From an uncultured Smithella sp. (GTDB taxonomy: Bacteria > Desulfobacterota > Syntrophia > Syntrophales > Smithellaceae): a stretch of DNA of 64,000 nucleotides. Shown in pieces: positions 19,217 to 32,057 of this stretch. The translations under genes and the position numbers were made by a program. The stretch lies in NCBI GenBank assembly GCA_964443625.1, contig CAYUDM010000009.1, positions 10,005 through 74,004 of the forward strand. The letters are read 5' to 3'. Within the stretch, counting starts at the first letter, position 1. The number at the start of each line of letters is the position of its first letter. Under the pieces are notes generated by a model, which saw only the letters and a list, made by a program, of their open reading frames with translations, did not search any database and was not told the origin of the DNA.

Positions 19217-20659
19217 TTATGTAGATAGCGAAGTCAATTTTCGGGTAAGCACGTCCCGGATGATTTTGGGATTGGCTTTGCCGCCGGAGGCCTGCATGAT
19301 CTGGCCGATCAAAAAACCTGCGGCTTTAGACTGGCCGTTTTTAAAATCGGCCACCGCTGCGGCTTGCGCCGCGAGCACCTGATCGATAATGGCCTCAAGG
19401 GCGCTCGCGTCGGAGACCTGGGCCAAACCTTTTGCTTTTACGATCTCGGCAGGCGCGTCATTCGAATCGAACATCGACGACAGCACGTCGCGCGCGGCAT
19501 TGGCATTGATTTCTTCTTTGGCGAGCATCGAAAGAAGCGCGGCAAGCCTCGCCGGCGTCACAGGCGTCCGGGATAGCTCCTGGCGGCGCTGACGAACCGC
19601 GGGCAATAACTGCGTGGTCAGCCAGTGCAGAGCGGCTCTGGGCTGTACGCCTTCGCGGAGAAGCTCTTCAAAGTAGCCGGCCACCTCCGGATCGGAGCTT
19701 AGATACGTCGCCTCTTCGGCGGAAAGGCCATGCTGATTGACGAAGCGTTCGGCGCGGGTCGCAGGCATTTCCGGCAGTCGCTTGCGCAACGCCTCGATTT
19801 CGTCGGGCGACAGCTCAATCGGCGGCACAGACGGATCCGGAACGCAGGGGCCTTCAAATTTCTGCCGCATCGGGAGCGTGACTTTTTTATCCGGGTCCCA
19901 CAAACGGGTGTGCAGGACCACGGGCTCGCCCGCCTGCACGGCCGCGCTCTGGCGGGTGATCTCATAGGCGATGGCGTCTCCCACATGCCGGACGGAGTTC
20001 ATGTTTTTCACTTCCACTTTGGTGTTCATCTGGTTTGTGCCTTTAGGCCGTATGGAAATGTTCGCGTCCGCGCGCATGGTTCCGTTTTCCATGCTGCACT
20101 CCGATGAACCCACATAGCGCACCTGCGTGCGCAGCGCCTTGAGAAATTCCATCGCGTGGTGCGGCGTGCGGAAATCCGGTTCGGTGACGATTTCGACAAG
20201 CGGCGCGCCGGCGCGGTTGAAATCCACCAGGCTGATGGGGTTGCGGCCTTCCATTTCATGCACCAGCTTGGCAACGTCTTCCTCCATGTGGATATGATGG
20301 ATGCGCAGCCTTTTGACGGAGCCGTTCTCATCGGTGATGTCGATCCAGCCGCCGCGGGACAAAGGCAGATGCGCCTGTGAAAGCTGATAACCTTTGGGCA
20401 GATCCGGATAATAGTAAACCTTCTGATCGAACGCGCTTTTCGGCTGGATTTCGGCATTGAGACCCAGGCACAAAAGCGCCGCTTTATCCAGCGCGGCCTT
20501 GCTGAGGCGCGGCGCGGCGCCGGGATACCACAGGCAGACCGGACAGGTGTTGACATTGGGATCATCGCCGGGATTGTTGGGACAGTCGCAAAACAGTTTG
20601 GTGGCACAGTTGAGTTCCACGTGAATTTCCAATCCAATGACCGCTTCAAATTCCATCAT
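19217..20659 (-). CDS. gatB: Asp-tRNA(Asn)/Glu-tRNA(Gln) amidotransferase subunit B
   Basis: MMEFEAVIGLEIHVELN.. and the rest of the sequence are typical of GatB. I trimmed the start to 20659 (GGAGG SD; ATGA overlap with the upstream stop). The ORF track extends to 20818. Confidence 0.9.
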   Translation of the reverse strand: MMEFEAVIGLEIHVELNCATKLFCDCPNNPGDDPNVNTCPVCLWYPGAAPRLSKAALDKAALLCLGLNAEIQPKSAFDQKVYYYPDLPKGYQLSQAHLPLSRGGWIDITDENGSVKRLRIHHIHMEEDVAKLVHEMEGRNPISLVDFNRAGAPLVEIVTEPDFRTPHHAMEFLKALRTQVRYVGSSECSMENGTMRADANISIRPKGTNQMNTKVEVKNMNSVRHVGDAIAYEITRQSAAVQAGEPVVLHTRLWDPDKKVTLPMRQKFEGPCVPDPSVPPIELSPDEIEALRKRLPEMPATRAERFVNQHGLSAEEATYLSSDPEVAGYFEELLREGVQPRAALHWLTTQLLPAVRQRRQELSRTPVTPARLAALLSMLAKEEINANAARDVLSSMFDSNDAPAEIVKAKGLAQVSDASALEAIIDQVLAAQAAAVADFKNGQSKAAGFLIGQIMQASGGKANPKIIRDVLTRKLTSLST

Positions 20660-21849
20660 GATTTTCCTCCTGTGCCCGGCCGGGAAAGAAAAGTTCCCAG
20701 CGCCAGTATCCGCGCGTCGTCTTTGAGCGCGCCCACAAACTGCAGGGCGGGCCCGCCCGCCGCGAAAGGCGCCGCCGTCAACGCCGGACAACCTGTAACA
20801 TTGGCGTGCGCCGTCCATTTAAACTGATCGTAGAGGTTCTCCAGTGATTCCGGCGTGTCGGGTTTTTGCACAGGAAACACCAGAGCTTCAACCTGTTCAA
20901 AAAGGCGGCTGAATTCTTTGCAAAGCCGCGCGCGGATGCGGCAGGCGTTTTCATAGGCGTCATATCGTTCAAACTGAAAATACGCGCCCTGGATGAGATA
21001 GCTTTTAAGGAGCGTTTTGAAAAAAGCCCCGCGGGATTGCAGATACATGTCGTTCCAGTTTTTGGCCCCGGGAGCGCGTTTGCCGTAGCGCACGGAATCA
21101 TACCGGCCGGCCGAAGACGAGGCTTCAACCGATCCGACAATCCGGTGCACCAGCCCGCACAGGCCATAATCCGGCCAGGAAAGCATCTTTACCTTGAAGC
21201 CCGCTTTTTTGAGTTGCGCCAGTTCTTCGTCAAACGCCTTTTGCTCATCGCCTGCGAGTTCCGCTTTTGCTTCCTCGACAACGCCCAGGGTCATCCGATC
21301 CGGCCGAATCCCGGCAGGTGAACCCTCGGTATACGACAACACAGGCTGGGAAAAGTCTCGGTCATCCGGCCCGGCAACGGCGGCCAGAATCAGGCGGATG
21401 TCCTCAGGCGCACCGGCGAGAATCCCGCAGGCTTCCATCGACGGAAGAAGTCCGGCAATGCCCACACGGGGAATGAGCCCCCAGCTGGGCTTGAAACCCC
21501 AGATGCCTGCGCGGCAGGCGGCCAGACGCGCTTCGCCCGCAAGATCGAGCATCATTTCCGCCCGGGCGGCCTTTTGATCAATGGCCCGGCCTGCTGCGCT
21601 TTGGGCGTCAAGACCCAAGCCGAATTCACTCGTGTGCGTCGAGCCCACAAGGAAAGCGCCGTTTTGTTGAAGCCGCTCGACAACCGCCGCGTTTTCGGCC
21701 GCCTGGAAACCGGCCAGAGCATCCGAGCCCGGGTCCATAGGCCAGCCCGCGACGCCGATGCCGGATTGAATGGCTACGGTCATTCCCGCAAGCTTGCCCG
21801 CGGGACTTTCAGTTCTGTTGGGATTGCGATAGAAAAAAGTGGAATCCAT
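20656..21849 (-). CDS. GatA-like amidase-fold protein lacking the amidase catalytic residues
   Basis: 397 aa and collinear with GatA (..WGFKPSWGLIPRVG.., ..SSSAGRYDSVRYG.., ..NVTGCPAL..). However, IKD is replaced by IQS, the GGSSGG block is absent, and TGGSIR is replaced by AGEARL. See findings. Confidence 0.7.
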   Translation of the reverse strand: MDSTFFYRNPNRTESPAGKLAGMTVAIQSGIGVAGWPMDPGSDALAGFQAAENAAVVERLQQNGAFLVGSTHTSEFGLGLDAQSAAGRAIDQKAARAEMMLDLAGEARLAACRAGIWGFKPSWGLIPRVGIAGLLPSMEACGILAGAPEDIRLILAAVAGPDDRDFSQPVLSYTEGSPAGIRPDRMTLGVVEEAKAELAGDEQKAFDEELAQLKKAGFKVKMLSWPDYGLCGLVHRIVGSVEASSSAGRYDSVRYGKRAPGAKNWNDMYLQSRGAFFKTLLKSYLIQGAYFQFERYDAYENACRIRARLCKEFSRLFEQVEALVFPVQKPDTPESLENLYDQFKWTAHANVTGCPALTAAPFAAGGPALQFVGALKDDARILALGTFLSRPGTGGKS

Positions 21850-21859
21850 AGATCATCCT

Positions 21860-23980
21860 TTATTCCAGAATACTGGCGACTTTGAAATAATTGCCCTTGA
21901 CCGCCGGCGCGCTTTGAAGAAGTTTTCCGGTTTCGGCCAGTTCCGATCGCTTGGCATCCAGACCGGGCCGCGTGCGATGAGACGCGGGCAAAACCGATTG
22001 GATCGGCTCTTCATTTCCCGCTTCTTTGCCCGCAAGGCCGGCCAGCGCTTCGGCCTGGCTTAAAACCTCTTCCATCACGGACCGCTCCGCAGGATCAACG
22101 CCGATGCGCGACACCCACGACACGCGGTCGAGCAGATTTTCTTTTTCCGCGGTTCCGGGAAGAACCTCTTTGCCGCCCAGATTCAAAAGGCCCAGTTCAG
22201 CCAGTTGCTGATGTTTGACAACGGACGGCGCACCGGTAAGCGGACAACCTGCCGAGCGGTTTTTCGGAAATGCGATGACGTCGCGGATGGAGGGCGTTTT
22301 GAGAATCATCGAGACCACACGGTCCATTCCCAGCGCGAGGCCTCCGTGAGGCGGCGCGCCGTAGTCGAAGGCTGTCAGGAAAAAGCCGAACTTTTCCCGC
22401 ATGTCCTCTTCGGAAAGCCCCAGCGCAGAGAAGATCTTGCGCTGAAGATCGCGGTTGTTGATACGGATGCTGCCGCCGCCCAGCTCCTCGCCGTTCATCA
22501 CCAGATCGTAGGCGCGTGAACGCAACCCGAGCAGCTCCTCGACGTTTTTCGGGTCGAAATCCGTTCGGTCCGGCGCGGTGAAAGGATGATGGCTCGAGGT
22601 GACGCCCCCCTCCTCCGTGGGTTCAAAAAGAGGAAACTCTGTGACCCACAGCGGGCAGAAAAGATCTTCGGGAATCAGCCCCAGACGGTTGGCCAGGTGC
22701 AGGCGAAGCTGCCCCAACGCGGACGTGACAATCGCGTAAGACGGATCGGCCACCATGATGAGCACGTCGCCGTCCTGCACGTCAAAACGTTTCCAGAGCG
22801 CAGCCAGTTCCGCCTCGCTGAAAAACTGGACGATGTTGGATTCCAGTTTTCCGCCTTCGGCGCGCATCCAGGTTATTCCCTTGGCGCCGAAAGACGGCGC
22901 GATTTCTTTGGCGTATTCATTTTGCAGGACGTTTTTGCTCAGGCTCTCCGACCTGCCTTTGACGTTGATGCCCTTGATGCAGCCGCCGCGCTTGAGAATC
23001 TGTCGGAAGATTGAATAATTTGTATGGGTGAAAACATCGGTGACATCCACAAAGCGCAGGCCGAAGCGCAGATCGGGACGGTCCGAACCGGTGGTGTCCA
23101 TCGCCTCGGCGTAGGTCATGCGCGGAAATGGCCGGGGAAGCGAAATGCCGCCGACGTCGAACATCTGTACAGTCAGCTCTTCGATCAGATCGTAGAGAAA
23201 TTCTTCATCGATAAAAGACGCTTCAAGATCCAGCTGCGTGAATTCCGGCTGGCGGTTGGGGCGCAGGTCTTCATCACGGAAACACCGGGCCATCTGGAAA
23301 TAGCGCTCCAGGCCGCCGATCATTAAAAGCTGTTTGAAAAGCTGCGGCGACTGCGGCAGGGCGTAGAAATTGCCCGGATGGACGCGGCTGGGCACCAGAT
23401 AGTCGCGCGCGCCTTCAGGTGTGCTCATCGTCAGCACGGGCGTTTCGACTTCCATAAAGCCCCGCTCACCAAGGAAGCGGCGCACGCACTGGAATATTTT
23501 GTGGCGCAATAGCAGATTGCTTTGCATGGCCGGTCGCCGGATATCCAGATAGCGGTACTGGAGGCGCAGTTCTTCTGAAACGCTTTCGGAACCTGTTTTT
23601 TCCGCGCCCGCAACCATGGCTTTATCGGATATCGCAAACGGTAGCGGATCGGATTCGGCCAGAATTGTCATCCGGCCGACGACCACTTCAACCTGCCCGG
23701 TTTCAATATTGGGGTTTTCCGTTCCGGCCAGTCTTTTTCTCACCTCGCCTTCGGCTGAAACGCAATATTCAGCGCGAAGCGAGGAGGCCTTCTCGCAGAT
23801 CTCCCGGGGCGTGATCTCCGGATTGAAAACGATCTGCACAATGCCGCTGCGGTCGCGCAAATGGATGAATATCAGACCGCCGTGATCGCGGTAGGCGTCC
23901 ACCCATCCACAAAGCTGCACATTTCGTCCGACATGCTCCACCTTCACGCTGCCGCAAAAGGTCCGCAGGGAAAAACTCAT
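21860..23980 (-). CDS. aspS: Aspartate-tRNA ligase with a C-terminal GatC-like domain (fusion)
   Basis: The first about 595 aa are a bacterial class-II AspRS (FRDEDLRPNRQPEFTQLD, GGGSIR, ..AFPKN). The last about 95 aa resemble GatC and end in APAVKGNYFKVASILE. Confidence 0.9.
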   Translation of the reverse strand: MSFSLRTFCGSVKVEHVGRNVQLCGWVDAYRDHGGLIFIHLRDRSGIVQIVFNPEITPREICEKASSLRAEYCVSAEGEVRKRLAGTENPNIETGQVEVVVGRMTILAESDPLPFAISDKAMVAGAEKTGSESVSEELRLQYRYLDIRRPAMQSNLLLRHKIFQCVRRFLGERGFMEVETPVLTMSTPEGARDYLVPSRVHPGNFYALPQSPQLFKQLLMIGGLERYFQMARCFRDEDLRPNRQPEFTQLDLEASFIDEEFLYDLIEELTVQMFDVGGISLPRPFPRMTYAEAMDTTGSDRPDLRFGLRFVDVTDVFTHTNYSIFRQILKRGGCIKGINVKGRSESLSKNVLQNEYAKEIAPSFGAKGITWMRAEGGKLESNIVQFFSEAELAALWKRFDVQDGDVLIMVADPSYAIVTSALGQLRLHLANRLGLIPEDLFCPLWVTEFPLFEPTEEGGVTSSHHPFTAPDRTDFDPKNVEELLGLRSRAYDLVMNGEELGGGSIRINNRDLQRKIFSALGLSEEDMREKFGFFLTAFDYGAPPHGGLALGMDRVVSMILKTPSIRDVIAFPKNRSAGCPLTGAPSVVKHQQLAELGLLNLGGKEVLPGTAEKENLLDRVSWVSRIGVDPAERSVMEEVLSQAEALAGLAGKEAGNEEPIQSVLPASHRTRPGLDAKRSELAETGKLLQSAPAVKGNYFKVASILE

Positions 23981-31981: not shown

Positions 31982-32057
31982 TGGCTCCCCAGCGCGGACT
32001 CGAACCACGGACATGCTGGTTAACAGCCAGCCGCTCTACCGACTGAGCTACTGGGGA
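31982..32057 (-). tRNA. tRNA-Asn (anticodon GTT), CCA encoded
   Basis: Hand-folded sequence: TCCCCAG TA GCTC AGTCGGTA GAGC G GCTGG CTGTTAA CCAGC ATGTC CGTGG TTCGAGT CCGCG CTGGGGA G CCA. Confidence 0.9.

Follow-up and report, generated by a model that had tools for sequence, protein, structure and literature searches.

An aspartyl-tRNA synthetase with a GatC-like tail, encoded beside a degenerate GatA-derived protein and GatB in Smithella and its relatives

In a 64-kb stretch of DNA from an uncultured Smithella species (the whole of which is called the window hereafter), we found a single gene for a 706-aa protein in which a bacterial aspartyl-tRNA synthetase (AspRS) runs on, through a short linker, into what profile comparisons indicate is a divergent homolog of the amidotransferase subunit GatC. 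The gene is followed by one for a GatA-derived protein, which we call GatA′ and which is predicted to have lost its glutaminase activity, and then by a canonical gatB. We propose, at a probability of roughly 0.78, that this is a natural covalent fusion of a presumably non-discriminating (ND) AspRS with a divergent GatC, and that it operates with GatA′ and GatB as a tethered Asn-transamidosome.

Transamidosomes keep mischarged Asp-tRNA-Asn from reaching the ribosome, and the known ones are non-covalent assemblies that range from stable to transient. The parts proposed here are the same as those of the non-covalent Asn-transamidosomes of Thermus thermophilus (3KFU), Pseudomonas aeruginosa (4WJ3) and Helicobacter pylori, namely AspRS, GatC, a protein of GatA fold, GatB and a U1-A72 tRNA-Asn, and chains from Asn-transamidosome entries are among the best matches of both the GatA′ model and the tail profile described below. 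In the known systems, GatC is a free protein of ~95 aa and the complex is held together by tRNA or protein contacts, whereas in the window GatC lies within the AspRS chain; the Smithella operon also differs from them in having a GatA without the catalytic triad. The H. pylori Asn-transamidosome is described as dynamic (PMC3367201).

The AspRS body, the linker and the GatC-like tail

The whole fusion gene (21860..23980, minus strand) encodes, in this order, AspRS, linker and GatC-like tail. It is a single frame from ATG to stop (706 aa plus the stop codon), as an initial reading made from the letters of the window (the sequence-only reading) had reported for this aspS gene, and its limits agree with the alignment to the NCBIfam model NF009460 and with the many homologs of 706 aa. 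The AspRS module (aa 1-598; 22187..23980, minus strand), delimited with Pfam and NCBIfam, comprises an OB anticodon-binding domain, a class II catalytic core and a GAD insertion. The Pfam models for these three parts (PF01336, PF00152 and PF02938, respectively) all scored above their gathering scores within aa 21-575, and two NCBIfam models of bacterial AspRS, TIGR00459 (701.3 bits vs a cut-off of 373.85) and NF001750 (758.4 bits vs a cut-off of 443), matched within aa 6-598. The translation carries the class II signatures QSPQ, FRDEDLRPNRQPEFTQLD (motif 2), GGGSIR and GLALGMDR. The usual AspRS end (..QQLAELGL), which the sequence-only reading had quoted as ..IAFPKNRSAGCPLTGAPSVVKHQQLAELGL, was found with its last residue at aa 598, and a further 108 residues lie beyond it. 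Judged from these matches, the synthetase part of the fusion is complete and of bacterial type, and it looks fully functional.

The linker (aa 599-612, LNLGGKEVLPGTAE; 22145..22186, minus strand) falls outside both the AspRS and the GatC alignments and contains a conserved LPG motif. Its residues L11, P12 and G13 are invariant in 25 of 25 tails and are mostly retained in divergent fusions with a tail identity of 40-50%, which suggests that the linker is not free-form and that LPG may be a docking or turn element.

The tail (aa 613-706, ending in ..APAVKGNYFKVASILE; 21863..22144, minus strand) was delimited by profile matches, hhalign, GatC chains in the PDB and an AlphaFold2 model. We compared it with other proteins by means of three alignments, one of 25 tails (A1), one of 14 divergent tails (A2) and one of four stand-alone GatC proteins (A3). 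When the A1 profile was searched against 1.84 billion representative proteins, just 35 matched at E <= 1e-3. All but one of these (34 of 35) were fragments or relatives of the fusion or stand-alone GatCs, most being fragments of the same fusion, and the exception was a weak match to a 1262-aa repeat protein. The four stand-alone proteins reached in this way, which are 93-101 aa long and have E-values of 1e-6 to 8e-4 over the whole library, are GatC by Pfam (48-67 bits), and a search with one of them matched five GatC chains of the PDB (1e-10 to 2e-8).

Aligning A2 to A3 with hhalign gave a probability of 99.4% (E = 1.6e-21) over 92 columns, with tail positions 17-109 placed on GatC positions 4-95 of 97. 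This figure is somewhat circular, since the A3 GatCs were chosen via the tail profile, and the library-wide E-values are free of that circularity. The stretch collinear with GatC by hhalign is aa 613-705, or nt 21866-22144, which bears out the GatC-collinear extension that had been placed at roughly 21863-22150. In the same alignment, the hallmark C-terminus of GatC, NAP..G.YF.V..I, falls on SAPAVKGNYFKVASILE of the fusion tail. The C-terminal motif AP.VKG.YFKV..ILE is nearly invariant among the tails, and W26, R29, P63, R75 and K104-V105 are invariant.

Taken by itself, the window tail matched the Pfam GatC model PF02686 over profile positions 13-66 of 66 with 15.5 bits (E = 0.02) and so missed the gathering score of 23, while the related tails P0129 and P0137 scored 23.2 and 23.7 bits on the same model. 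A phmmer search of the single tail sequence against the PDB gave no relevant match. With the A1 profile, the two best PDB matches were both GatC chains aligned end to end, 2df4_C from Staphylococcus aureus and 4wj3_C from P. aeruginosa, at marginal E-values of 0.065 and 0.41, respectively. The outcome of checking the tail against GatC profiles is therefore split, being sub-threshold for a single sequence against Pfam but positive for the tail profile and for hhalign against verified GatCs. AlphaFold2 modeled the tail alone as two helices, the first short and the second long, with an extended segment at the C-terminus (predicted local distance difference test, pLDDT, 61.6; low confidence), a predicted secondary structure that resembles GatC. 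Foldseek with this model returned three PDB matches in all, each of them a GatC chain, with weak scores (E = 0.4-4) that we use as supporting evidence only. Together, the profile comparisons indicate that aa 613-706 are a divergent GatC homolog.

Distribution, gene order and annotation of the fusion

Among the 120 best matches listed for the fusion, 116 were homolog clusters of exactly 706 aa with 76-96% identity, and their labels were Smithella, Smithellaceae or Syntrophaceae. When genomes representing one species each were scanned with A1, the tail was encoded in no fewer than 162 of them, nearly all from Syntrophales. From the 162 tail-encoding genomes we kept 80 loci for analysis, among which are two on closed chromosomes, from the isolate Syntrophus buswellii DM-2 and from the metagenome-assembled genome (MAG) ORM2a. 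In about 60 of the 80, the fusion is one frame that covers query aa 1 or 2 to 706; in the others, it is truncated at a contig end or, at two loci (L034 and L055), broken by what looks like a frameshift. The extension was present in all of the relatives examined, and a fusion on a metagenome contig with just 63% identity retains the same operon. That assembly or sequencing error has joined aspS to gatC is an explanation with nothing more than the unusual length in its favor. Such an artifact is refuted by the uninterrupted frame in the 116 listed clusters, in the ~60 loci, in a closed isolate chromosome and in the 63%-identical fusion, and we give it practically no weight; the recurring 706-aa frame also rules out the sequencing error separating two open reading frames that the sequence-only reading had allowed for.

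The fusion gene or gatB lies in two adjacent frames at four loci, L083 (9409-10867), L034 (4593-6333), L055 (4202-6342) and L063 (7544-8844), and the splits appear to be frameshifts introduced during assembly, not true gene fission. Many MAGs with the Syntrophales-type operon carry labels of Dehalococcoidia, Chloroflexota, Verrucomicrobia, Planctomycetota, Acidobacteria or Actinomycetota, including L013-L015, L021, L025, L028, L029, L033, L037-L040, L056 and L057. Since these sequences match the window as closely as the Smithella-labeled ones do, we suspect that these contigs are mis-binned or the MAGs mislabeled.

Mean identity to the window over 56 species was 79.9% for the AspRS body, 77.9% for GatB, 64.9% for the tail and 53.5% for GatA′. 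The higher identity of the tail compared to GatA′, along with its invariant residues, suggests that the tail is under constraint.

The gene order is likewise constant. In the window, 10 nt separate the fusion stop from the GatA′ start on the same strand, and the GatA′ stop overlaps the ATG of gatB (ATGA), which fits translational coupling. A GatA-like gene of ~397 aa lies directly downstream of the fusion in 80 of 80 loci, gatB of ~476 aa comes after GatA′ in every kept locus whose contig reaches that far, and the order fusion, GatA′, gatB was also found in a Syntrophaceae MAG. Profile searches of all six-frame open reading frames of at least 40 aa found neither a separate gatC nor a further copy of gatA or gatB in the window, and no stand-alone gatC or canonical gatA (GGSSGGS motif) was found in the window or in the flanks of 82 loci. 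The sequence-only reading had held that no separate gatC lies in the operon, and this can be extended to the whole window and to the flanks of the loci. It had also named the neighbors as gatA-like and then gatB; the order stands, but the gatA-like gene encodes no ordinary GatA, as it is without the Ser-cisSer-Lys apparatus. Scans of the operon for promoters and terminators gave matches at chance level, and Rfam found tRNA only.

The architecture of the fusion already has a name in the databases. NF009460 (PRK12820) is titled 'bifunctional aspartyl-tRNA synthetase/aspartyl/glutamyl-tRNA amidotransferase subunit C' and aligns aa 1-706 of the fusion, end to end, to model positions 18-723 of 723, with 131 bits (E = 3e-38) coming from the tail portion alone. 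The total of 1309.7 bits misses the curated equivalog cut-off of 1379 (95% of the cut-off), so the window protein would be a diverged member of this architecture and no equivalog by NCBI's rule. Because the score is just below this cut-off, the Smithella fusions are labeled plain 'aspartate--tRNA ligase' at NCBI; their precomputed Pfam domains show no GatC, and GatA′ is labeled 'amidase family protein' or 'hypothetical protein' at NCBI and GatA at JGI. In pathway reconstructions for Smithella and Syntrophus, these labels therefore mean that GatC is silently missed and an active GatA is presumed.

Our literature searches turned up no description or characterization of a natural AspRS-GatC fusion, NF009460 being an annotation model, and the sole match for 'aspS-gatC' was an artificial operon and was set aside. 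Searches for GatA-like pseudoenzymes gave nothing relevant, the matches being swamped by GATA transcription factors, and those for Syntrophus amidotransferases gave nothing relevant either. The novelty that the sequence-only reading saw in the fusion thus holds in that the fusion is uncharacterized in the literature found, but it was overstated, since NF009460/PRK12820 already names the architecture. The fusion appears to be of a catalogued but uncharacterized kind, and what is apparently undocumented is its lineage-wide pseudo-GatA partner and the AspRS paralogy of Smithella.

GatA′, GatB and the tRNA-Asn context

GatA′ (397 aa; 20656..21849, minus strand) was identified as a GatA-derived pseudo-glutaminase from a partial Amidase match in Pfam, TIGR00132 and alignments to GatAs in the PDB. 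The GatA model TIGR00132 gave 182.9 bits, short of its cut-off of 481, and profile coverage was limited to positions 146-458 plus a short N-terminal piece. We aligned GatA′ to five PDB GatAs, once with the single sequence and once with a profile of 30 sequences, and in every alignment the catalytic Lys (iAvKDNi) is replaced by Gln (vAIQSG) and the nucleophile Ser (DTGGSIRQPA) by Glu (DLAGEARLAA), so that GGS*IR has become GEAR. Relative to the same five proteins, 20-30 residues with the Gly/Ser-rich amidase signature are deleted, and ~45 N-terminal GatA residues are missing. Among the window GatA′ and 70 orthologs, Gln occupies the Lys site in 70 of 71 and Glu occupies the Ser site in all 71; the distant L083 ortholog has His at the Lys site and Glu at the Ser site.

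From these substitutions, GatA′ is predicted to be catalytically dead as a Ser-cisSer-Lys glutaminase. Since it is without the Lys, the Ser and the signature loop, it would have no glutaminase role, and the amide nitrogen would need another source. On the other hand, the AlphaFold2 model of GatA′ (predicted template modeling score, pTM, 0.85) has as its best PDB matches the GatA chains of transamidosome or GatCAB structures (TM 0.78-0.86), which indicates that the GatA fold is retained. GatA′ also evolves much faster than its neighbors, as the mean identity of 53.5% over 56 species shows, and this fits a scaffold freed of catalytic constraint.

Precedents for catalytically altered GatA relatives that still enter GatCAB-like complexes are AtzE-AtzG (6C62) and Tse8 of P. 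aeruginosa (bioRxiv 10.1101/733030). These amidase-signature proteins derive from GatA or mimic it, and they pair either with a GatC-like protein or with the transamidosome. AtzE, however, is an active hydrolase of another pathway, and Tse8 is a toxin, whereas GatA′ is still encoded in the gatB operon and is without the triad.

The gatB gene (480 aa; 19217..20659, minus strand) has a canonical GatB_N domain and YqeY tail. It scored above cut-off with NF004012 (576.9 bits vs 338) and TIGR00133 (495.3 vs 314.8) and matched PF02934 and PF02637 in Pfam, and by these matches GatB is intact and canonical. A mechanically listed gatB open reading frame of 533 aa has a 53-aa N-terminal extension (20660-20818, minus strand) that overlaps GatA′; the true start is at 20659, and since orthologs are called at 474-475 aa, the extension is almost certainly untranslated.

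Outside the operon, the window encodes a tRNA-Asn (GTT; 31982..32057, minus strand), the presumed substrate, which was identified by ARAGORN, Rfam (66.9 bits) and its sequence. Its gene is 8 kb upstream of the operon on the same strand. The tRNA has the U1-A72 pair, which is the feature of tRNA-Asn that GatCAB reads.

A genome survey that covers Syntrophus aciditrophicus SB gives counts of asnA 0, asnB 1, gatCAB 1, aspS 1, asnS 0 and glnS 1, with a U1-A72 tRNA-Asn (PMC4206432 Table S1). Since asnS is absent and glnS is present, the amidotransferase is required there for Asn-tRNA-Asn and not for Gln-tRNA-Gln, a need that fits a fusion to AspRS. Taken at face value, the survey also implies that AspRS is non-discriminating in S. 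aciditrophicus, because there is a single aspS, no asnS and a gatCAB. By analogy, the AspRS of the fusion is presumably non-discriminating.

Smithella also has an AspRS without the tail. At four loci, the contig that bears the fusion operon also encodes, in a hisS-aspS operon, a tail-less AspRS of 589-591 aa (L004, 2155-3927; L009, 1327-3117; L005, 9961-11736, minus strand; L082, 10001-11770). It is 48.7% identical to the AspRS body of the fusion, and canonical tail-less AspRS forms more than 120 clusters in Smithellaceae; none was found in the window. Thermus and Deinococcus likewise have two AspRS paralogs, a discriminating AspRS1 and an ND-AspRS2 for Asn synthesis. In Smithella, one paralog is in the hisS-aspS operon and the other beside the amidotransferase genes, and both are bacterial-type with a GAD domain, while AspRS2 of Thermus is archaeal-type and thus unlike either Smithella copy. 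As markers of an ND-AspRS, we tried two sequence features (His in RDHGG and Gly in the L1 loop), which are present in both Smithella paralogs; because they fail to separate the fused from the tail-less AspRS, this test was rejected.

The proposed tethered transamidosome and its alternatives

In the arrangement that we propose, the GatC tail would wrap GatA′-GatB as free GatC does in GatCAB, and each subunit of the dimeric AspRS would bear an amidotransferase of its own, so that the resulting Asn-transamidosome would be permanently tethered. The fusion AspRS would aspartylate tRNA-Asn, the acceptor end would move to GatB, and GatB would phosphorylate and amidate the Asp to yield Asn-tRNA-Asn, with the mischarged intermediate never being released. 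The amide nitrogen would be supplied either as free ammonia (GatCAB takes ammonium in vitro) or by a glutaminase or a canonical GatA whose gene lies elsewhere.

A covalent tether between a synthetase and GatC has been made before. Chain C of 3AL0, from the crystal of the Gln-transamidosome of Thermotoga maritima, is an engineered GatC-linker-GluRS whose tether serves to keep the transamidosome together, and since this chimera crystallized, a tether between an aminoacyl-tRNA synthetase and GatC is sterically workable. It differs from the Smithella fusion in being artificial, in having GatC at the N-terminus and in working with GluRS, tRNA-Gln and an active GatA. Natural or selected precedents are GlnRS-YqeY of Deinococcus, in which YqeY is a paralog of the GatB tail, and the gatC-gatA fusion of Mycobacterium smegmatis (PMC1865053, PMC7541841); these involve other modules and partners, and neither joins AspRS to GatC.

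Several points weigh against a tethered Asn-transamidosome. The window tail on its own is under the Pfam GatC gathering score, and its model is of low confidence at pLDDT 61.6. The absence of a canonical gatA and a stand-alone gatC holds for the window and the locus flanks, and a canonical gatA, gatC or gatCAB may lie elsewhere. The dead GatA′ leaves the amide donor without explanation. Smithella has a second AspRS, and as the ND markers are common to both paralogs, they do not discriminate between them. The hard-wiring of the transamidosome, its assembly and its channeling are also an inference drawn from synteny and homology.

If an ordinary gatCAB or an intact gatA were encoded elsewhere in the genome, the fusion operon would be a second, specialized assembly, or, as a variant, GatB and the fused GatC would pair with a distant active GatA, and GatA′ would be a regulatory or assembly decoy. 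This would accommodate a GatA′ predicted to be incapable of glutamine hydrolysis by the amidase-signature mechanism, the redundancy of AspRS paralogs already seen in Smithella and the entry 'gatCAB 1' that the Alperstein survey gives for S. aciditrophicus after a BLAST active-site check of unstated depth. However, no canonical gatA (GGSSGGS) or gatC turned up in the 64-kb window or the 82 flanked loci, and the canonical gatB is about as conserved as the AspRS body (77.9% vs 79.9%), as a housekeeping copy would be. GatA′ is also translationally coupled to gatB and kept in every genome, and it would therefore be a stoichiometric partner. We regard a separate gatA or gatCAB as unlikely on balance, while leaving it appreciable weight. 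The tail could, on the other hand, be a vestigial or repurposed GatC that has lost amidotransferase binding and now acts as a dimerization, tRNA-binding or regulatory appendix. The tail has diverged further than the AspRS body has (identity 64.9% vs 79.9%), it falls under the Pfam threshold in the window, its GatA partner is degenerate, and vestigial complexes derived from GatCAB are known, such as the AtzE entry 6c62. We nevertheless find a vestigial tail quite improbable, as the C-terminal AP.VKG.YFKV..ILE hallmark is nearly invariant, the synteny with GatA′ and gatB is strict in 80 of 80 kept loci with no other gatC nearby, and, to our knowledge, GatB needs a GatC-type subunit in every characterized GatCAB.

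The tethered Asn-transamidosome leads to a bolder proposal, which we make tentatively and would not ourselves bet on. The only tRNA-dependent amidotransferase of Syntrophales may be without a glutaminase, consisting of an ammonia-fed GatB with a dead GatA′ as scaffold and being permanently tied to an ND-AspRS through the fused GatC. If true, an ammonia-fed tethered enzyme would be the only route to Asn-tRNA-Asn in organisms that have no AsnRS and live in ammonium-rich methanogenic habitats.

A lineage-wide fusion of AspRS and GatC would be a ready-made stoichiometric model of obligate channeling and a target for structural work, and crystallographers needed an engineered tether of a similar kind for the Gln-transamidosome. 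The more surprising part is the partner, which retains the GatA fold and its place in the operon and whose catalytic apparatus is, by alignment, gone in every genome examined. A dead GatA′ raises the question of whether this amidotransferase runs on ammonia alone or on a borrowed glutaminase, and the answer would bear on the evolution of glutamine-dependent amidotransferases and on the nitrogen economy of syntrophs.

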